NCBI GenBank assembly: GCA_944391475.1
Contig: CALXTR010000003.1
Span: 50,823 to 114,822 of the forward strand
Origin: an uncultured Alphaproteobacteria bacterium
GTDB lineage: Bacteria > Pseudomonadota > Alphaproteobacteria > RF32 > CAG-239
Length of the DNA: 64,000 nucleotides
Direction of reading: 5' to 3'
Shown: positions 3,627 to 45,754 of the stretch, in pieces
Position numbering within the stretch: the first letter of the stretch is position 1
Layout: the number at the start of each line of letters is the position of its first letter
Notes under the pieces: model-generated
What the model saw: only the letters and a program-made list of their open reading frames with translations
Database searches by the model: none
Told to the model about the DNA's origin: nothing
Translations under genes and position numbers: made by a program

Positions 3627-3684
3627 AACTCAACATAAAAAAAGAGGCCGACAAGCGACCTCATTTTTTATGGCGTACCCGGAG
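3627..3684. repeat. Partial direct copy of the tRNA-Arg 3' end plus its terminator (attR-like scar)
   Basis: ctcaacataaaaaaagaggccgacaagcgacctcattttttatggcgtacccggaggg is 57 of 58 identical to 3873-3930. Confidence 0.8.
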
Positions 3685-3872
3685 GGCTTGAGGATAAAAA
3701 CAACCGTTACTCCGGTTGTTTTTACCGCAAAAGGCGCAGTTTTCTTAACAAGCAAGGAATGCGTAAGCTTTCCGAAGCGAGATTAGGAAACAAGTGACCG
3801 CAGCGAGTTAGCGAACTTGTGAGCTTAGGAGCCAGAACGAACCCACGAGTGGGTTCAAATCCGCCGGGACTC

Positions 3873-3930
3873 AACATAAAAAAAGAGGTCGACAAGCGAC
3901 CTCATTTTTTATGGCGTACCCGGAGGGATT
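3873..3930. repeat. Direct repeat copy 2. It overlaps the genuine tRNA-Arg 3' end and its terminator.
   Basis: Same 58-mer as 3627-3684. Its 16 nt of tRNA 3' end continue into the full tRNA at 3912-3988. Confidence 0.8.
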
Positions 3931-3988
3931 CGAACCCACGACCCTTGGCGTCGGAGGCCAATACTCTATCCAACTGAGCTACGGGTAC
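3912..3988 (-). tRNA. tRNA-Arg (anticodon CCG)
   Basis: Reverse complement reads GTACCCGTAGCTCAGTTGGATAGAGTATTGGCCTCCGACGCCAAGGGTCGTGGGTTCGAATCCCTCCGGGTACGCCA. It has a 7-bp acceptor stem, a GTTCGAATC T-loop and the anticodon loop CUCCGAC. A hairpin plus T-run terminator follows. Confidence 0.85.
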
Positions 3989-23028: not shown

Positions 23029-23063
23029 TCAGCAATGCATAAATAAGATATGTAGATTTTAAA

Positions 23064-23357
23064 TTCTCCGTAAAATTGCTCTAGACGACCATTATACGAG
23101 CTTTAAGTAAAAGGTCGGATAGTGAGGAGAATAATAAGAAACCAGAAAAAATACGACTGAGTGTATAAAGACATACACGATTGGAGTATTTTTTCTGGCT
23201 TCTGTATTAGTCACCCGCTAGACGAGCTTAAAGTAAAAGTTCGGAGTTTTAGGTTAGTAGAGTAGTTTTTAGGGCGAGAAAAGCTTGAGCGTATATAGAA
23301 ATACGTGAGCTTTTCGAGACCCGCTAAAACTGCTCTAATAACCCAAAATACGAACTT
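23064..23357. repeat. Block of modular about 125 bp palindromic repeat units (standalone copy), directly abutting the lptG-like stop codon
   Basis: Shares ttctccgtaaaattgctctagacgaccattatacga, ctagacgagcttta, tattagtcacccgctagacgagc and the gagYgtatawagaaatacRYg hairpins with 30478-30748 and 44730-45016. Confidence 0.8.
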
Positions 23358-24464
23358 TTACCCGTCTTCCAAATGCAACAACACCGACACACTAATCATC
23401 GTGACAATCAAAGTCGGCGTCCACACCGCAAGCAAACCGGGAATATCCCCGTTCACCCCAAAAGCATAAATCAGCTGAGAGAGAAAATAGACCAAGAAAC
23501 CGGTAGAAATTCCCCCCACAATCAAATACATCACCCCTCCGCGCCGATTGTTAGGACGCAAAGCAAACACCGCTGCCACTAAAACCATCGCACACAGCAA
23601 GAAAGGAGATGCCAACAAAGACCAGTAACGGAGCTGATGCTTTTGAGCTGAAAAGCCTGATTTTTCATAAAAGCTGATAGTCCCAGGCAAATTCCAAAAC
23701 GAAATAGCTTCCGGCGGCACAAAATTTTCTTTGATTCTATCAATGGTCAGTTCAGTTTTATATTTAACATTGTTTGCGGTTTTAACCGGCTTTCCGGCCT
23801 CATAAATTTTGACATCGGCCAGCTCAAACATATTATTTTTAAGTGTTGCGGCAAAGGCCTGAATATTTTTGATTAGTTCGGAGTTTCGTCCTAGCTCCAA
23901 AATACTAACCCCATGCATCAGCAACACATTCTTATCTTGGCGAACTGATTTTGCCTGCAGCACCAAGAAACAATCTGCATCAATCGCCTCACGCAGCCAC
24001 AAGCCTTTTTCAGAAAAGAGCACCGCTTTAGGGTTACGGGTTTTGAAACGATAATCAAGTGTTTCATAAAGTTCATTCATCCGTGCGGCAATCGGATTAA
24101 TCACGGTGATATTGATTACCCCGATAATAAAGGTAGTCAAAAGCACCGGCGCCAAAAATCCCCAAATAGAAACTCCGGCAGCCCGAATAATCACAAATTC
24201 GTTACTTTTACTAACTTTCCAAAACGTAATCATTGCCGCAATCATCATCACAAACGGAAAGACCAGCTCAAGCGTTTTGGGCAGTTTGGTAATTGCCATT
24301 TCCATCACAAACCCAAAACCGGCATCATCACGTCCGGATGTTCGGCGCAGTAATTCCACCACTTCAAACAGCAAGACGATACCCATCACCATCATGAGCA
24401 CGCCAAAAAAGCTAAACAAGAGCTGCTTACTTAAATATTTTCCTAAAATCGACTTTGGGTTCAT
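23358..24464 (-). CDS. LPS export ABC permease, LptF/LptG family
   Basis: YjgP/YjgQ permease topology: six TM segments with a periplasmic beta-jellyroll insert. Whether it is LptF or LptG cannot be decided from sequence. Confidence 0.8.
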   Translation of the reverse strand: MNPKSILGKYLSKQLLFSFFGVLMMVMGIVLLFEVVELLRRTSGRDDAGFGFVMEMAITKLPKTLELVFPFVMMIAAMITFWKVSKSNEFVIIRAAGVSIWGFLAPVLLTTFIIGVINITVINPIAARMNELYETLDYRFKTRNPKAVLFSEKGLWLREAIDADCFLVLQAKSVRQDKNVLLMHGVSILELGRNSELIKNIQAFAATLKNNMFELADVKIYEAGKPVKTANNVKYKTELTIDRIKENFVPPEAISFWNLPGTISFYEKSGFSAQKHQLRYWSLLASPFLLCAMVLVAAVFALRPNNRRGGVMYLIVGGISTGFLVYFLSQLIYAFGVNGDIPGLLAVWTPTLIVTMISVSVLLHLEDG

Positions 24465-29517: not shown

Positions 29518-29546
29518 CTTGGTGCGGAGTTTTTTTGTGCCCGAAA
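29518..29546 (+). terminator. Rho-independent terminator after the SDR gene
   Basis: aaaactccgcttggtgcggagttttttt. Confidence 0.75.
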
Positions 29547-29576
29547 AATCCGCTTGCAAATTTTACGAGATAGGAT

Positions 29577-30050
29577 AAGCTAAAACTGCACTCGGGAGAG
29601 CCGAGTGCGGAGTGTAGTAACTCCTTGGTCAGAAAAGAACAACTCCTTTAATGGGGAGCTGGGGAAATAAGGCTATGCACGAATAACCCAGACTGTTTCT
29701 GTGTACAGTTTGGCCCCTAAATCCCCCTTAAAAATATATTTTAGTTTAGCTAGAAAAAGATAGATGCGAGCAAAATGGTGTAGCGGATAGTTCTTCATAT
29801 CCGCAAAGCATTTTACGAAGCAGATGCTTTTTATAGCTAAATCCGCAGGACAAGCCTCCAATCATCATCCTACTTGCCATTTTTCTTGGTGTTAGCAATA
29901 AGTAGCACCTGCGAAAAATGCCTGCGTATTATAATGATTGGGCGGCTTGCTAAAATATGTCTTTAAGGGAGATTTAGGGGCATCCTCCCCACCTTGATTT
30001 GTTGTCAAGGTGGTTTCTTTTTAACCGGAAACCTAAAGGGAGTTTAGAAC
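29577..30050 (+). promoter_or_regulatory. Structured leader of XRE module copy 1: conserved 5' hairpins and a terminator-like hairpin plus T-run immediately upstream of the RBS. It carries a nested MITE-like insert.
   Basis: Conserved gcactcgggagagccgagtgcggagt hairpin, ctcctttaatggggagc, and ccaccttgatttgttgtcaaggtgg followed by tttcttttt, 20 nt before the RBS. Homologous to 44170-44368. Confidence 0.45.
29714..29980. mobile_element. MITE-like 267-bp insertion with 19-bp terminal inverted repeats inside the leader; absent from the paralogous module
   Basis: Terminal inverted repeats cccctaaatcccccttaaa at 29714 and tttaagggagatttagggg at 29962 (18 of 19). Internal hairpins. No ORF. Confidence 0.45.
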
Positions 30051-30299
30051 ATGGGTCATCATCGTAACCGTATTAAATCTTGGCGAGAATGCCGCCAAGA
30101 AATTGGCGAAAAAATTAAGGAAATGCGATTAGAGTTGGATTTACCACCCGAAACCGCCGCCGAAATTTTGCGTATCGGCACCAATCATTTGCTTTGTTTA
30201 GAAAATGGCGATATCCGCAAAATGGAAATTTCTTATCTCCATTCTATAGCTTATAAATATCACTATAAGTTAAAAATCAGTTTTGAGAAAAAAACATAA
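30051..30299 (+). CDS. XRE-family helix-turn-helix protein (82 aa), paralog 1
   Basis: HTH LDLPPETAAEILRIGTNHLLCLENG. RBS AAAGGGAG. Roughly 70% identical to the 44369-44614 product. Confidence 0.7.
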   Translation: MGHHRNRIKSWRECRQEIGEKIKEMRLELDLPPETAAEILRIGTNHLLCLENGDIRKMEISYLHSIAYKYHYKLKISFEKKT

Positions 30300-30477
30300 C
30301 GTAAGCAAAAAGAGTTATTCCTCAATTGCTTTAGCAATATTTAAAGTCATCCCTCGTTTTTCGGAGAAAAACGTCCAGGGATCTTCGAATTTGTAAATAA
30401 AAAAACAACCTTCCGATTATTAAAAACTAACTCGAAGACCCCTTAACGACTACTAACGTAGTCGAGGGGTGACATTA
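30300..30477 (+). repeat. Conserved hairpin pair downstream of the XRE gene (copy 1)
   Basis: tcatccctcgtttttcggagaaaaacgtccagggatcttc and ccccttaacgactactaacgtagtcgaggggtgac are nearly identical to 44615-44729. Confidence 0.6.
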
Positions 30478-30748
30478 TCTAGACGAGCTTTAAGTAAAAG
30501 GTCGGATAGTGAGGGGAATAATAAGATTTCAGAGTGGCGGCGACTGAGTGTATAAAGAAATACACGGGTTCGAGCCGCCAGCTCGCAAAATCTGTATTAG
30601 TCACCCGCTAGACGAGCTTTAAAGTTCGGAGAATGAGTCGTATAGAGTAATTTCTAGGAGCGAAACAAACCCTAGCGTAGATAGACCTACGTGGGTTTGT
30701 TGAGTTCTCCGTAAAATTGCTCTATACGACCATTATACGAACTTTAAG
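30478..30748. repeat. Block of about 125 bp palindromic repeat units (module 1 tail), abutting the ftsH stop codon
   Basis: Units begin with ctagacgagcttta and contain the hairpins gtgtataaagaaatacac and cgtagatagacctacg. Ends with ccattatacgaactttaag. Confidence 0.8.
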
Positions 30749-32614
30749 TTAGAGTTCGGGGACAGAAGAATGCGTCCTCCTCTCTTCAGCTACCGGAACA
30801 TCTTCGCTGCGCTCCAACTTCTCGCCTTTGACCACTTGCTTGATTTCATCACCGGTCAGGGTTTCATATTCAATCAAGGCTTCGGCCAAAAGTTCCCATT
30901 CTTTGCGTTTGTCTTGCAAAATTTGCTTGGCTTCATTATAACCCGACATCACCAAGGACTTGATTTCGGCATCAACCAAACGGGCCGTATCTTCACTCAT
31001 ATTTTTGTTTTGAGTAACCGACTTGCCTAAAAATACTTCGCCCGAATTTTCGGCATACAACACCGGACCAAGCAAATCGCTCATTCCCCATTCGGTCACC
31101 ATAGAGCGCGCCAAGTTGGTTGCCGCCGCAATATCCGAAGAAGCCCCGCTGGTCACATCATCTGCCCCAAACTTGATTTCTTCTGCCACGCGTCCACCCA
31201 TCATAATTGCCAAGCGCGATTTCATTTTCTGCTTAGAATAAGAATATTGGTCTTTTTCGGGCAGTTGTTGCACCATACCCAAAGCCCGTCCCCGCGGGAT
31301 AATCGTTGCTTTGTGAATGGGGTCGGTTTCTTTAACATATAGCGAGCAAATCGCATGTCCGGCCTCGTGATAAGCGGTGAGTTGCTTTTCTTTCTCGTCC
31401 ATCGCCATTGACTTGCGCTCTGAGCCCATCATCACTTTATCTTTAGCTTCATCAAAGTCCTTAGAAGTAACTTTGTGCTTGTTTTTGCGCGCTGCTAATA
31501 AGGCGGCCTCGTTCACCAAGTTGGCCAAATCTGCCCCCGAAAACCCCGGAGTACCCCGAGCAATTACCGACAAATTAACATCTTTGGCTAGCGGCACTTT
31601 TTTGACATGAACTTTCAAGATTTCTTCTCGACCTTTTTTGTCCGGATTAGAAACCACCACCTGACGGTCAAAACGCCCCGGACGCAACAAAGCCGGATCC
31701 AAAACATCGGGACGGTTGGTTGCCGCAATCAAAATCACATTTTCATTGTCTTCAAAACCATCCATCTCCACCAACAATTGGTTTAAGGTCTGTTCGCGTT
31801 CATCATTACCACCGCCGAGTCCGGCTCCACGATGACGTCCCACCGCATCAATTTCATCAATAAACAACAGGCAAGGAGCATTTTTCTTGGCTTGAGCAAA
31901 CATATCCCGCACTCGCGAGGCACCCACACCCACAAACATCTCCACAAAATCTGAACCCGAAATTGAAAAGAACGGTACATTAGCCTCACCGGCTACTGCT
32001 TTGGCAATTAGGGTTTTACCGGTTCCCGGAGGTCCGACCAGCAACACGCCTTTAGGGATTTTGCCGCCCAAACGCTGAAATTTTGATGGTTCTTTCAAAA
32101 AGTCGATTACCTCTTCAAGCTCTTGTTTGGCCTCATCGGCTCCGGCCACATCTGCAAAAGTAACTTTTTTAGTATTTTCAATCAACCGCGCGCGTGATTT
32201 TCCAAAACTCATGGCTTTGTTGTTGCCTGAGCTTGCCTGACGCATAAAGAAAATCCACACCCCGATTAGCAAAATCATCGGGAACCAAGAAATCAGCACT
32301 CCCCAAAACGTATTAGCCGAAGTGTCTTCCGGACGAGCCTCCACTTTTGCTCCGCTGGAACGCAAGGTTTCAATCATGGTCGGGTCATATGGGGCATAAG
32401 TACTAAACTTGGTACCATCGGTTGCCGTACCCATAATATTTGCCCCCTCAATCATCACCTCGCTGATTTGCTTATTTTCGGCTTTACTCATAAAGTCCGA
32501 AAAAGCAATTGTCTGATAACCACGACTTTGCGGATTATTGCTAAACATATTCATAATTGCAGAAAGCAGCACGATTGCCACCAGCCAAATAATGATACTT
32601 TTTCCTGATTTCAT
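30749..32614 (-). CDS. ftsH: ATP-dependent zinc metalloprotease FtsH
   Basis: Two N-terminal TM segments, AAA+ Walker [12 protein letters not shown], and the HEAGHA zinc motif. Confidence 0.95.
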
Positions 32615-44136: not shown

Positions 44137-44169
44137 TTGCAATTTTGCAAAAATACTTTAAGTTAGTAG

Positions 44170-44368
44170 ATGCACTCGGGAGAGCCGGGTGCGGAGTATC
44201 GAAACTCCTCGTATGAAAAAAATAGCTCCTTGAATGGGGAGCGACCGGAATAAGTGTGCCTTGCGCATAACGAAGAAGGTCGACTGACATACGCAGTTTC
44301 GAACTCCCCGCCTTAGGAAAGCTAGGGCGGTTTCTTTTTAACCGGAAACCTAAAGGGAGTTTAGAACC
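44170..44368 (+). promoter_or_regulatory. Structured leader of XRE module copy 2 (no MITE insert), with a terminator/attenuator hairpin directly upstream of the RBS
   Basis: Hairpin gcactcgggagagccgggtgcggagt, ctccttgaatggggagc, and gccttaggaaagctagggc followed by ggtttcttttt, then the identical RBS region aaccggaaacctaaagggagtttagaac. Confidence 0.45.
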
Positions 44369-44614
44369 ATGAGTCACAATTACCGCCGTCAAGCTTGGCA
44401 AGCCTGTCAGCAAGAGATTGGCGAACAAATTAAGAATATGCGCTTAGAGTTGGATTTACCTCCACAAATTGCCGCAGAACTTTTACATATCGGATTAAAC
44501 CAGCTTTTGTACCTTGAAAACGGCTATATTGGGAAAATGCAAATTACCGTTCTCCATGCACTGGCTTATAAATATCACTATAAGTTAAAGATAAGCTTTG
44601 AGAAAAAGAATTAG
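44369..44614 (+). CDS. XRE-family helix-turn-helix protein (81 aa), paralog 2
   Basis: LDLPPQIAAELLHIGLNQLLYLENG, with the C-terminus AYKYHYKLKISFEKK identical to paralog 1. Confidence 0.7.
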   Translation: MSHNYRRQAWQACQQEIGEQIKNMRLELDLPPQIAAELLHIGLNQLLYLENGYIGKMQITVLHALAYKYHYKLKISFEKKN

Positions 44615-44729
44615 AAAAAACAAAAGAGTCATCCCTCGTTTTTCAGAGAAAAACGTCCAGGGATCTTCCGATTAAAGAAACTAACTCGAAGACCCCTTGA
44701 CGACTACTAACGTAGTCGAGGGGTGACAT

Positions 44730-45016
44730 TACTTATGTATTAGTCACCCACTAGACGAGCTTTCATCTCCGGCACGGCTTAAAGTTCGGAGAATGAGTCG
44801 TATAGAGTGATTTCTTTGGCGATGACAATCCTAGCGTATATAGAAATACGTGGATTGGCTAAACAAGTTTCAACCTCTGGCACGGCTTAAAGTTCGGAGA
44901 ATGAGTCGTATAGAGTAATTTCTAGGAGCGAAACAAACCCTAGCGTAGATAGACCTACGTGGGTTTGTTGAGTTCTCCGTAAAATTGCTCTAGACGACCA
45001 TTATACGAACTTTAAA
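44730..45016. repeat. Block of about 125 bp palindromic repeat units (module 2 tail), abutting the fabG stop codon
   Basis: tattagtcacccactagacgagc, two copies of ggcacggcttaaagttcggagaatgagtcgtatagag, and the hairpins cgtatatagaaatacg and cgtagatagacctacg. Ends with ccattatacgaactttaaa. Confidence 0.8.
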
Positions 45017-45754
45017 TTAAATCATGGCCATACCACCATTAATATTAATAGTCTGTCCGGTGATATATTGAGCTTCATCAGATGCCAAGAAAGCAACCAC
45101 ATTGGCAATGTCTTGAGCTTCACCCAGCTTGCCTTCCGGAATTTTGGCCAACAAAGCAGCTTTCACATCTTCAGGCAAAACATCGGTCATCGGAGTACGA
45201 ATGAAACCAGGAGCAATCGAGTTAACCGTAATTCCGCGAGAACCAACTTCTTGAGCCAAACATTTGTTCATGGCAATCATACCGGCTTTTGAAGCAGAAT
45301 AGTTAGCTTGTCCGGCATTTCCGGTAACACCAACCACCGAAGCAATACCGATAATACGACCATAGTGACGTTTCATCATACCGCGAACGGCAGCTTTAGC
45401 CAATTTGAAACCAGCCGAAAGGTTAACATCGAGAACCAACTGCCAGTCTTCATCGCTCATACGAATAAACAAGTTATCGCGGGTCAAACCGGCATTGTTA
45501 ACCAAGATATCAATGCGGCCGAGTTTGTCTTCCACATTTTTAACCAAGTTTTTAACATCATCAGGGTTGGTCAAGTTAGCTACAAAGATTTCGACATTAT
45601 CACCGAGCTCAGCTTTGAGTTTTTCCATCGGCTCAGCGCGCATATCAGTCAAAGCCAAAATTGCACCTTGAGCATGCAAGGTACGAGCAATTTTATCACC
45701 CAAACCGCCGGCTGCACCGGTAATCAAAGCTACTTTTCCATCAAGTCTAAACAT
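45017..45754 (-). CDS. fabG: 3-oxoacyl-ACP reductase
   Basis: TGAAGGLG, NAG, and YSASKAG; 245 aa. Confidence 0.93.
   Translation of the reverse strand: MFRLDGKVALITGAAGGLGDKIARTLHAQGAILALTDMRAEPMEKLKAELGDNVEIFVANLTNPDDVKNLVKNVEDKLGRIDILVNNAGLTRDNLFIRMSDEDWQLVLDVNLSAGFKLAKAAVRGMMKRHYGRIIGIASVVGVTGNAGQANYSASKAGMIAMNKCLAQEVGSRGITVNSIAPGFIRTPMTDVLPEDVKAALLAKIPEGKLGEAQDIANVVAFLASDEAQYITGQTININGGMAMI

Follow-up and report, generated by a model that had tools for sequence, protein, structure and literature searches.

Strain typing by ERIC-PCR, which exploits ERIC elements, is practised worldwide; to our knowledge, no mobilising enzyme and no role of the conserved core have been established for them. 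An orientation rule for ERIC copies next to stop codons was reportedly set out by De Gregorio et al. in 2005. The ERIC consensus has the core CCCCAG-GAG-CTTAC-ATAA-GTAAG-TGA-CTGGGG, and copies fuse to the 3′ ends of genes in reverse-complement orientation (Delihas 2007, PMC2759123). Terminal inverted repeats, TA termini, target-site duplication and co-transcription have also been described for ERIC, together with an orientation-dependent effect on RNase E decay (PMC2229807, PMC3184786). Shorter palindromes of 20-40 bp, namely REP, dRS3 and the GTAG- or CGTC-tagged types, make up the BIME of E. coli, the NIME of Neisseria and the RIME of Rhizobium (PMC3733652).

We analysed a stretch of 64,000 nucleotides from an uncultured alphaproteobacterium, here called the window, which carries several blocks of palindromic repeats next to the stop codons of housekeeping genes. 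We propose that these blocks consist of non-autonomous, hairpin-forming repeats of the ERIC/IRU superfamily and that they form a new family in this host, a reading that we consider likely.

Repeat arrays in the window and the genes they abut

A preliminary description of the window had reported three blocks with shared motifs at 23064-23357, 30478-30748 and 44730-45016, and both coordinates and motifs proved correct, with block 1 starting slightly further left at 23059. It had also proposed a modular palindromic repeat family of about 125 bp, which was borne out and extended, as the units are imperfect palindromes over their whole length, beyond the small hairpins first noticed. The three blocks are head-to-tail arrays of such palindromes, 125-135 nt long (typically ~128 nt) and of two types, X and Y. 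Blocks 2 and 3 share a 'pre' module upstream of each and also a duplicated small HTH gene, and a fourth block begins at about 63791, near the right end of the window. The features are as follows.

23059 to 23106, plus strand: block 1, leftover Y 3′ arm, 96-98% identical to the Y2/Y3b 3′ arm
23097 to 23231, plus strand: block 1, unit X1, with tip AGTGTATAAAGACATACACG at 23160-23179; single long hairpin, -49.1 kcal/mol, z -8.1
23232 to 23357, plus strand: block 1, unit Y1, with tip at 23288-23307; hairpin, -58.7 kcal/mol, z -8.3
23358 to 23360, minus strand: TAA of the LptF/LptG-family gene, which on the mRNA strand base-pairs within the foot of the Y1 hairpin
30345 to 30477, plus strand: 'pre' module copy 1, a pair of hairpins separating the HTH gene from the array
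30484 to 30620, plus strand: block 2, unit X2, with tip at 30547-30566; hairpin, -53.5 kcal/mol, z -6.0
30619 to 30748, plus strand: block 2, unit Y2, with tip at 30674-30693; hairpin, -66.8 kcal/mol, z -12
30749 to 30759, minus strand: stop and last three codons of ftsH (P-E-L-stop); TTAGAGTTCGG resembles the left terminus of a unit
44627 to 44731, plus strand: 'pre' module copy 2, 94-98% identical to copy 1
44732 to 44764, plus strand: block 3, X-unit 3′-arm fragment, 94-96% identical to the right ends of X1/X2
44779 to 44866, plus strand: block 3, truncated unit Y3a, with left arm and tip (44833-44852) and without right arm
44887 to 45016, plus strand: block 3, unit Y3b, with tip at 44942-44961; hairpin, -62.1 kcal/mol, z -11
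45017 to 45019, minus strand: TAA of fabG; the protein ends ...GGMAMI
63791 to 64000, plus strand: block 4, cut by the window end, Z units of 129 nt, with tips at 63846-63865 and 63975-63994

The repeats are confined to these blocks, as blastn within the window found no family copies elsewhere. The motif CTAGACGAGCTTTA, with at most one mismatch, has four copies, all in the blocks (expected 0.00), and the generalised tip AGYGTA-N8-TACRYG has seven (expected 0.02), with an eighth, one mismatch away, at 63846; every one of these copies, and hence all eight tips, lies on the plus strand. Y3b is 99% identical to Y2, X1 has a counterpart at 96% identity in a locus of a related genome (L008), and the truncated Y3a folds weakly (z -2.7). 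The 'pre' module also occurs without the HTH gene, in locus L010. Terminator-like hairpins were seen in the leaders of the HTH genes. A short hairpin made of 'pre' and X-arm sequence lies at 44712-44760, and an inner module is swapped in loci L095 and L100; together these raise the idea of nested insertion into the loops of existing hairpins.

The observation that each block ends at the TAA of a minus-strand gene is exact, with stops at 23358-23360, 30749-30751 and 45017-45019, and the last bases of Y1 run into the TAA. The genes had been named lptG, ftsH and fabG, of which the second is confirmed, the third is consistent with what we find and the first holds at family level only. The gene at block 1 encodes domain PF03739, which covers LptF_LptG, so that lptF and lptG are not distinguished. 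At block 2 the product is FtsH, with Peptidase_M41, AAA and FtsH_ext domains, and the alignment of the Y arm continues into the coding end of ftsH (30749..30759); the corresponding end codons in locus L009 read TTTAAAGTTCGG. The gene at block 3 encodes a short-chain dehydrogenase and directly follows a FabD-like gene, as is consistent with fabG, and its product ends in what we take to be the usual FabG C-terminus.

Block 4 differs in setting, as its Z units lie in frame inside a minus-strand, hemW-like radical-SAM gene whose HemN_C domain falls in 63546-63983. The intact gene of locus L106 encodes 558 aa with five in-frame 43-aa repeats, and the same array begins within the window. PDB homologues of the hemW-like protein align to its N-terminal radical-SAM part only.

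Hairpin structure, the conserved tip and its ERIC counterpart

Complete units each fold into one long hairpin, with RNA minimum free energies of -49 to -67 kcal/mol and z of -6 to -12 relative to shuffled sequences. The family is wider than the three loci first described, being found in related genomes, in metagenomes and in the fourth block of the window, and 82 distinct units form hairpins of 105-150 nt. The covariation noted at the outset was upheld, with cgtaT...Atacg alternating with cgtaG...Ctacg and ccagaaaaaatac/gtattttttctgg with ggcggc/gccgcc; among 13 Y-type units, 31 of 46 pairs show compensatory double changes. The arms evolve fast and keep their complementarity. The conserved end of the hairpin is a tip of 22-26 nt with the layout GAG-YGTAN-loop-NTACR-YGA, comprising a 3x3 internal loop (GAG / TGA), a stem of 5-6 bp with covarying pairs, and a loop that varies from 4 to 10 nt across loci. 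In metagenomes this tip is shared by at least 35 repeat families whose arms are unrelated, and it is also found in Paenibacillus. As the metagenome loci were recruited by tip sequence, the 20-mer that they share is so by construction, and the independent evidence from them lies in their arms, positions and orientations alone. In four loci (L010, L047, L060 and L062) an insert of ~84 nt follows exactly after TACGTG.

The two strands of a unit do not fold equally well. The arms taken alone still favour one strand: the difference averages -6.8 kcal/mol and has the same sign in 75/82 units, and on these grounds an excess of G·U pairs due to the tip only was rejected as the source of the asymmetry. 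Genes abutting a unit are without exception antisense to the strand that folds better. The preference for stop codons was strong. The non-redundant set comprises 23 cases with a stop codon at a distance of 38-98 nt, measured from the 3′ side of the tip; the gene is antisense in 23/23, and in 17/23 the stop falls at the unit's foot or within it (no more than ~60 nt from the tip). Among the loci surveyed there was no sense-oriented stop codon less than 65 nt from a tip, giving 23 antisense against 0 sense cases. X and Y units carry stop codons in all three frames and therefore cannot be translated through, and stops supplied by the element itself were seen as TAG within CTAG, as TGA, or as TAA within cgtaTAAtgg. 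Three-frame stops were rejected as the cause of the orientation bias, as both ends of Y carry stops. Scans of the arrays for promoters and for terminators gave nothing above background, and no T-tract terminator was found in them.

The tip has a counterpart in ERIC. The central inverted-repeat core of ERIC, GGAGCTTACATAAGTAAGTGAC, and the core here, GAG-CGTAK-loop-MTACG-TGA, share the layout GAG-xxTAx-loop-xTAxx-TGA, with differences confined to covarying stem pairs and the loop, and copies L108 and L109, from E. coli and Klebsiella, carry an intermediate form, GGAGCGTAC...GTACGTGAG. Trained on eight enterobacterial ERIC sequences only, a covariance model returned the three complete Y units as its top three matches in the window, at full length and on the plus strand only, with E-values that are rough because the calibration was short: Y2 was best (30623-30743, 28.2 bits, E 1e-4, compared with 10.5 bits on the minus strand), followed by Y1 (23243-23352, 26.3 bits, E 3e-4) and Y3b (44891-45011, 23.4 bits, E 2e-3). 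In the same search X units were not recovered (E 1.2) and Z units had no match; intermediate families score 25-59 bits. Global alignment of the arms to the ERIC consensus gave z ≤1.4 for the window units and z of 4-5.7 for L015, L048, L058 and L108. The shared tip could in principle be convergent.

The repeats had first been taken for a distinct family, unrelated to known ones. Tip and architecture match ERIC/IRU and the ERIC-only model recovers the Y units, and this match to a known MITE weakens the claim of novelty; what stands of it is that the arms have no significant primary-sequence similarity to ERIC and that the host is alphaproteobacterial. Rfam searches at gathering and permissive thresholds yielded nothing for the window beyond weak 'microRNA precursor' similarity to either strand, such as long hairpins in general give, and nothing for related loci. 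The tip pattern was not found in viral contigs, a Paenibacillus array had no match in phages, and a search of the full-text literature with the tip sequence found no paper.

Turnover, mechanism and rival explanations

Closely related strains differ by whole units. In strain locus L098 exactly unit Y1 is missing beside the lptG stop and the flanking protein is identical; in L083 an extra X-type unit sits precisely between the TAA of fabG and the first of the Y units, again with an identical FabG protein. In both polymorphisms the extra unit sits directly against the stop codon. The length of the fabG array ranges from 260 to 474 nt among strains, the ftsH locus of a related MAG has a different unit content, and near-identical units (96-99%) occur at unlinked loci. 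Unit termini read TTAAAG...CTTTAA, and filled and empty junctions (gggTAA|AAGCTT against gggTAA|AAGTTCG...ACTT|TAAGCT) are compatible with duplication of TA or TAA and ambiguous in A/T runs. As the junctions lie in such runs, no clean target-site duplication can be read from them, and the strain differences could therefore be microhomology deletions instead of insertions. Of the generic features of MITEs, the units show terminal inverted repeats, many copies and polymorphic presence among strains, and no parent insertion sequence was found near the copies. Among 504 ORFs from 75 loci there was no transposase that recurred beside the elements or lay near any copy, and no Y1/HUH transposase, RAYT gene or other candidate enzyme.

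We propose the following model for the arrays. The units would be moved in trans by an enzyme and would insert at TA/TAA, which would make the stop codon a tolerated target, and repeated insertion at the ends of existing elements would build the arrays. Co-transcription with the abutting gene would then give a hairpin in the 3′-UTR whose foot includes or touches the stop codon, so that a terminating ribosome would have to melt it. By analogy with the ERIC of Yersinia, the units probably modulate mRNA decay or 3′-end stability and would not be classical terminators, as they have no T-tract.

An alternative that we consider improbable, and that survives best of those weighed, is that the tip is a single-stranded-DNA recognition site for a recombinase or HUH enzyme, in the manner of IS200/IS605 ends, REP-RAYT or attC. 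If insertion were strand-specific, 3′ of TAA and on the lagging-strand template, the orientation bias and the growth of the arrays would both be accounted for. The asymmetric conserved tip, with its covarying stem and its loop of variable length, suggests that a folded strand is what is recognised; new units are found on the stop-codon side of older ones, as expected if the target is kept beside the element; and the insert after TACGTG described above also fits. In the window, where GC skew is negative throughout, the motif lies on the C-rich strand, and so it does in 45/53 loci. However, the better-folding strand would belong to the leading-strand template, contrary to the IS608 rule, no candidate enzyme was seen in any locus, and replication and gene direction are confounded, the only clear exceptions (L014, L043) breaking both rules together.

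Somewhat less probable still is that the hairpins are a vertically inherited 3′-UTR regulatory RNA, selected and non-mobile, and repeated by local duplication or gene conversion. The extensive compensatory change and the conservation of the tip across phyla would both be expected of such an RNA, as would the recurrence of housekeeping neighbours (pheT, fabG, lysS, secA) and a diverged unit at the same fabG position in another species (L013). Against it stand the near-identity of units at unlinked loci, the whole-unit presence/absence among strains with identical proteins, the units inside a coding sequence and, in operons, a better-folding strand that is antisense to the only obvious transcript.

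The likeness to Rickettsia palindromic elements (RPEs) that had been suggested is apt as to behaviour, because the 129-nt sister units sit in frame in the hemW-like gene, and the encoding of a peptide, here of 43 aa, by in-frame units is a hallmark reported for RPEs (PMC10969869). That the units belong to an RPE family is nevertheless very unlikely. The host is an alphaproteobacterium and the units are palindromes of ~105-146 bp, as for RPEs, but X and Y units cannot be translated through, the covariance model of sequence and structure points to ERIC, and blastn of a window unit against plasmids, rickettsial ones included, found no match. Chance resemblance or an assembly artefact is scarcely credible: repeats do break metagenome assemblies and several contigs end inside arrays, but motif counts are far above the shuffled expectation and the same arrays recur in many independent assemblies from different samples.

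Comparison with ERIC and other known systems

Several described systems share parts of this organisation. BIME, NIME and RIME are likewise mosaic blocks of several repeat types and linkers, sited after genes and between convergent genes; the GTAG/CGTC-tagged REP and dRS3 types were rejected, as the hairpin here is ~128 nt long, the tip stem has 5-6 bp, compared with 8-15 bp in REPs, and there is no architecture with an unpaired tag. Correia/NEMIS and other MITEs are, as here, small, with terminal inverted repeats, TA-containing termini and strain-specific presence/absence, and are co-transcribed with their neighbours, as we suppose for these units. Typical MITEs conserve their termini and vary in the centre, whereas the units here keep their centre across phyla and vary at the termini. 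RPEs resemble them, on a comparison by description only, in an alphaproteobacterial host, palindromes of ~100-150 bp, several families per genome and an in-frame peptide module (Z), and differ in that most units here are intergenic, arrayed and untranslatable; the tip links the units to ERIC. Integron attC sites, which have R and L boxes (RYYYAAC/GTTRRRY) at the hairpin foot and vary at the tip, were rejected, as conservation lies at the tip and not the foot, the flanks are core housekeeping genes and no cassette ORFs lie between units. A tyrosine-recombinase core site (dif- or lox-like, two 11-bp arms and a 6-bp spacer) was rejected, as the stem shows covariation and the length of the loop ranges over 4-10 nt. 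Finally, the K-turn, hammerhead, group II intron domain V, ssoA CS-6 and sigma-54 promoter were set aside by eye, key consensus positions being missing.

More speculatively, ERIC may be one branch of a cross-phylum superfamily of ~130-nt hairpins in which the 22-26-nt tip alone is universal and is recognised by a widespread enzyme, a possibility to which we give less credence than to its alternatives taken together. It would then be spread over Enterobacterales, Alphaproteobacteria, Paenibacillus and other lineages from metagenomes; the enzyme would work on a single folded strand and insert copies 3′ of stops or in frame in genes, the arms would be free to drift while pairing is kept, and there would be a pointer to how ERIC-type elements move. 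If the link to ERIC holds, the family has a much greater age and a far wider distribution than the name suggests, and comparison across phyla isolates the ~24-nt tip as the constrained part, which could serve as bait for a partner protein and as a sequence-and-structure signature for annotating repeats in MAGs. The gain and loss of whole units at the stop codons of essential genes, and the in-frame 43-aa modules of a radical-SAM protein, are natural experiments that bear on the effects of hairpins on termination, mRNA decay and protein evolution. In practical terms, metagenome assemblies break at the arrays, which can also be annotated wrongly as ORFs.

ERIC itself is the closest counterpart. 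Both it and the units here are ~127 nt long and form a single long imperfect hairpin with purine-rich internal loops, and both are asymmetric between strands (-61.8 against -45.2 kcal/mol for the ERIC consensus, and likewise for eight natural copies). Natural ERIC copies L110, L113 and L114 have the stop of an antisense gene 7, 0 and 4 nt away, as here, some ERIC copies are translated as part of a gene, as are some units here, and an internal insert of ~70-85 nt is found in ERIC copy L111 and, here, in L010. The differences lie in the host, an alphaproteobacterium as opposed to Enterobacterales and Vibrio for ERIC in the literature (our search of plasmids with the ERIC consensus matched Enterobacterales plasmids only); in the loop, of 6 nt here and 4 in ERIC; in the second stem pair, G-C here and T-A in ERIC; and in the reverse complement, open in two frames in ERIC whereas X/Y units are stopped in all three. 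Unlike ERIC, the units here are strung head to tail into mosaic arrays that draw on two or three subfamilies (X, Y, Z) and include linker modules. On our best reading, the elements are distant relatives of enterobacterial ERIC, a known kind of selfish or regulatory DNA, and what is new is the alphaproteobacterial host group.

Palindromic arrays at three stop codons

The units are structured, strand-asymmetric and fast-turnover repeats that carry a conserved tip and, in a single orientation, either adjoin stop codons or provide them. Re-reading of the window bore out the sequences and coordinates given in the preliminary description for three plus-strand blocks, as well as its placing of each block against the stop codon of a minus-strand gene, the open reading frames ending flush against each block's last unit. 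Its account of the blocks as containing small hairpins had to be replaced: each unit of ~125-135 nt is one full-length imperfect palindrome that forms a single long stem-loop, with folding energies of -49 to -67 kcal/mol and z-scores of -6 to -12. Two unit types, X and Y, alternate along the blocks and are connected via arm fragments and short linkers (...CTCTGGCACNNCTTAAAG...).

Genes and units at the three blocks
23358-23360, minus strand: end of the block 1 gene, an LptF/LptG-family permease (PF03739)
30749-30751, minus strand: end of the block 2 gene, FtsH
45017-45019, minus strand: end of the block 3 gene, a short-chain dehydrogenase after a FabD-like gene, consistent with FabG
23097-23231, plus strand: X unit
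30484-30620, plus strand: X unit
23232-23357, plus strand: complete Y unit
30619-30748, plus strand: complete Y unit
44887-45016, plus strand: complete Y unit
44779-44866, plus strand: truncated Y unit

Allowing at most one mismatch, CTAGACGAGCTTTA occurs four times in the window, always on the plus strand and within the blocks (0.00 expected from shuffles), and a generalised form of the tip, AGYGTA-N8-TACRYG, occurs seven times, again only on the plus strand (0.02 expected). By blastn the repeat family within the window is confined to blocks 1-3. All three arrays are flanked by convergent genes, and ahead of both block 2 and block 3 stands a copy of a duplicated segment made up of a structured leader, an HTH gene of 81-82 aa and a two-hairpin 'pre' module. 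Read on the strand of the abutting gene, X and Y units present stops in all three frames within 19-35 nt, and the same holds for the opposite end read on the complementary strand. In the mRNA sense the lptG stop codon is paired into the hairpin foot, and those of ftsH and fabG lie 2-3 nt ahead of it. Promoter and terminator scans of the arrays found no T-tract terminators or recognisable promoters.

The two copies of the HTH cassette (29545-30299; 44150-44614) each hold a promoter-like TTGCAA-N17-TAAGCT, the leader and a weak-HTH protein of 81-82 aa; their non-coding ends are 94-98% identical and the coding region only ~74%. Just before the ribosome-binding site both leaders end in a terminator-like hairpin and T-tract (29989-30013; 44308-44330), with differing stem sequences, which may represent an attenuator or a small RNA. 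The leader of copy 1 is interrupted by a 269-bp element (29713-29981) with 32-nt inverted-repeat borders (GCCCCTAAATCCCCCTTAAAAATATATTTTAG), which looks like a second, unrelated MITE and is missing from copy 2 and from CALXUQ01, an uncultured alphaproteobacterial MAG whose ftsH-locus cassette is a chimera of both window copies. At two further loci (L002, L003) the cassette stands beside another left-hand gene. Elsewhere in the window, a 62-nt direct repeat (3628-3689 / 3869-3930, 97% identical), which takes in a terminator hairpin together with the 3' end of a tRNA gene (3915-3988, minus strand), looks like the scar of integration at that gene, and a 1013-aa ORF (49599-52640, minus strand) for which no Pfam match was found contains two 300-nt copies, 94% identical and 465 nt apart (49766-50530).

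The tip and its spread

A 21-nt junction pattern matches one species-representative genome, the MAG CALXUQ01, in which the flanking genes share 93-95% identity with the window and which carries more arrays at other loci. Together with the 72 metagenome loci returned by a scan with the 20-nt Y tip, these arrays extend the family beyond the three loci from which it was described. The common 20-mer of the metagenome loci is therefore present by construction, and it is their surroundings that are informative: in nearly every locus the tip (GAG-YGTAN-loop-NTACR-YGA) is the apex of a 105-150-nt hairpin, the arms of the units sort into 35 or more families dissimilar to one another, and GC content spans 31 to 67%. 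The covariation proposed for the hairpins was recovered in the stem of the tip, where pairs change together (CGTAG/CTACG, CGTAT/ATACG, CGTAC/GTACG, TGTAT/ATACA), the loop has a variable length of 4 to 10 nt, and the flanking GAG and TGA are retained. One tip-bearing family, arrayed with a period of 184-186 nt, has matches on plasmids or chromids of Paenibacillus urinalis and P. cellulosilyticus; the tip thus crosses phyla.

In these Paenibacillus-type arrays (L014 1706-2120; L063 12166-12713; L103 1490-1640) each period of 184-186 nt consists of the tip-bearing hairpin and a second hairpin with a CCAATNAA loop, and the arrays begin at the TAA of the upstream gene, with pheT, fabG, glyS and a ~1,200-codon gene as neighbours; we found no literature on them. 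Separately, an insert of ~84 nt (cagtcgatagttggcgattggcaagcacctcgtgcgcagacagagccttacgtgacgagcgagcttgcgagatcaac) directly follows the TACGTG of the tip in different unit families and species (L010 24-700, L047, L060, L062), which suggests a second element targeting the tip.

Turnover and orientation at the stop codon

Contigs from other samples that encode LptG or FabG identical to the window proteins carry different arrays, so the arrays change by whole units faster than the flanking proteins. At lptG, one contig (L098) is missing exactly the 128-nt Y unit of block 1, such that an X unit abuts the stop codon, and in two others (L095, L100) the inner ~76 nt of the Y unit is swapped for another self-complementary variant between the same outer arms. 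At fabG, strains differ in how far the HTH gene stands from the stop codon (260 to 474 nt), and L083 has an extra X-type unit exactly at the junction of the TAA with the first Y unit, which reads TAA-tt-TAA in other strains. The ftsH locus of the MAG also differs from the window in unit content. In both polymorphisms, at lptG and fabG, the variable unit adjoins the stop codon; as the junctions fall in A/T runs, they are compatible both with duplication of TA or TAA on insertion and with microhomology-mediated deletion. At a further locus (L008 4990-5200) a second copy of the last ~18 nt of a pheT-like gene, TAA included (ggagccaaaatccgataa), follows the first X unit, and the gene end was therefore duplicated along with a unit.

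The preference for stop codons that had been anticipated is borne out. In 23 non-redundant cases (~18 distinct loci) a long ORF has its stop codon 38-98 nt away from the tip, measured from the tip's 3' side; in 17 cases the distance is within ~60 nt, which puts the stop in the hairpin foot or inside the arm. Relative to the tip as written, the gene runs antisense in all 23, and none of the loci examined has a sense-orientation gene ending within 65 nt of the tip. Several of these stop codons come from the element itself, in differing frames (a terminal TAA, TAG within CTAG, TGA or TAA within cgtaTAAtgg), so that the repeat contains the ends of those genes; ftsH closes on codons (P-E-L-stop) that resemble a unit terminus.

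Of the two strands, the one bearing the tip as written forms the more stable fold; the arms alone, co-folded without the tip, give a mean strand difference of -6.8 kcal/mol, and the sign agrees in 75 of 82 units. The better-folding strand is the C-rich one, and of 53 loci, 45 show negative GC skew on the strand that carries the motif. Throughout the window (1-64000) plus-strand skew is -0.06 to -0.19 whatever the gene direction, which places the whole stretch on one replication arm with the minus strand leading. Gene direction and replication direction are confounded in these data. The tip may alternatively be recognised on folded single-stranded DNA, with polar insertion 3' of the TAA, which would explain both the growth of arrays at the stop codon and the replication-strand bias.

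In the model that we propose, the units would be non-autonomous mobile elements of ERIC type that are co-transcribed with the abutting gene; no mobilising enzyme was found near any copy in the loci examined. A terminating ribosome covers roughly a dozen downstream nucleotides and, because the hairpin foot includes or touches the stop codon, would have to open the hairpin. De Gregorio et al. in 2005 reportedly found that ERIC copies overlapping or adjoining stop codons favour one orientation. For Yersinia ERIC, the same study, as summarised in PMC2229807 and PMC3184786, is reported to have found that such opening exposes an RNase E site and lowers the upstream transcript, in one orientation only.

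Relation to RPE and ERIC

A fourth array lies within a gene: tips at 63846 and 63975 are part of 129-nt units (Z) inside a minus-strand HemN_C-domain ORF (window 63546-64000), which belongs to a hemW-like gene that is also antisense to the tip. On a contig running past the window end (L106, 4893-6569) this gene is intact (558 aa), and five in-frame 43-aa repeats (NLKQNSGVRNSRTNMYAQVSALRDFTLSSTLKTVKPCPEPKEE) separate Radical_SAM from HemN_C; solved homologues align to the N-terminal part only. In another strain (L105) this array is interrupted by a scaffolding gap of Ns. With such in-frame repeats the suggested likeness to Rickettsia palindromic elements holds in behaviour, as insertion within genes is reported for these elements (PMC10969869) and for some ERIC copies (PMC2759123).

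Rfam searches, a check that had been proposed, returned no family match for the units, and a full-text literature search for the tip sequence gave no match. A blastn query joining representatives of 34 of the 35 families matched records of E. coli, Klebsiella and Yersinia, where the tip reads GGAGCGTAC-ATAA-GTACGTGAGG, and this led to ERIC. The core of the E. coli 127-nt ERIC/RU-1 consensus is CCCCAG-GAG-CTTAC-ATAA-GTAAG-TGA-CTGGGG (Delihas, PMC2759123), and its 3x3 GAG/TGA internal loop and 5-bp stem are those of the window tip; the second stem pair is T-A in the consensus, A-T also in natural copies and G-C in the window. ERIC further carries second-tier motifs (AAGGCGGCAAG, GCGAACGCAGCCAACGCAG) that are present in many metagenomic families. 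It shares the strand asymmetry (consensus -61.8 vs -45.2 kcal/mol, eight natural copies alike) and the stop-codon rule: among eight natural copies examined, three have a gene antisense to the consensus whose end is 0-7 nt away from the right end. Internal inserts of ~70-85 nt occur in some ERIC copies, as in L010 here; in Salmonella copies (L111) a 76-nt insert lies ~14 nt after the core. ERIC-like copies between pheM and pheS in a plasmid-labelled E. coli record (L108 368-486, NZ_CP090612) and between recF and dnaN in K. aerogenes (L109) have a core (GGAGCGTAC...GTACGTGAG) that stands partway from canonical ERIC to the window tip, and are ~71% identical to the ERIC consensus.

Plain alignment of the window arms with ERIC gave no significant similarity. 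A covariance model built from eight enterobacterial ERIC sequences only, and run unfiltered over the window, placed the three complete Y units as its top three matches, at full model length and on the plus strand; their scores, with approximate E-values, are 28.2 bits (E 1e-4), 26.3 bits (E 3e-4) and 23.4 bits (E 2e-3). Read on its minus strand, the best-scoring of these units reached 10.5 bits, and other long window hairpins at most 16 bits; the X unit of block 1 reached only E 1.2, and Z units, a third type, were not matched in the window scan. With the same model several metagenomic families score 25-59 bits, intermediates that grade from ERIC towards the window family. Of the earlier view of a distinct family reminiscent of the Rickettsia elements, the palindromic, MITE-like character and the behaviour stand, but the closest demonstrable relative is ERIC. 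The family is a newly found one of an already known kind. The ERIC core is kept in Alphaproteobacteria, Paenibacillus and other lineages while all else drifts, and this conservation singles it out as the functional determinant.
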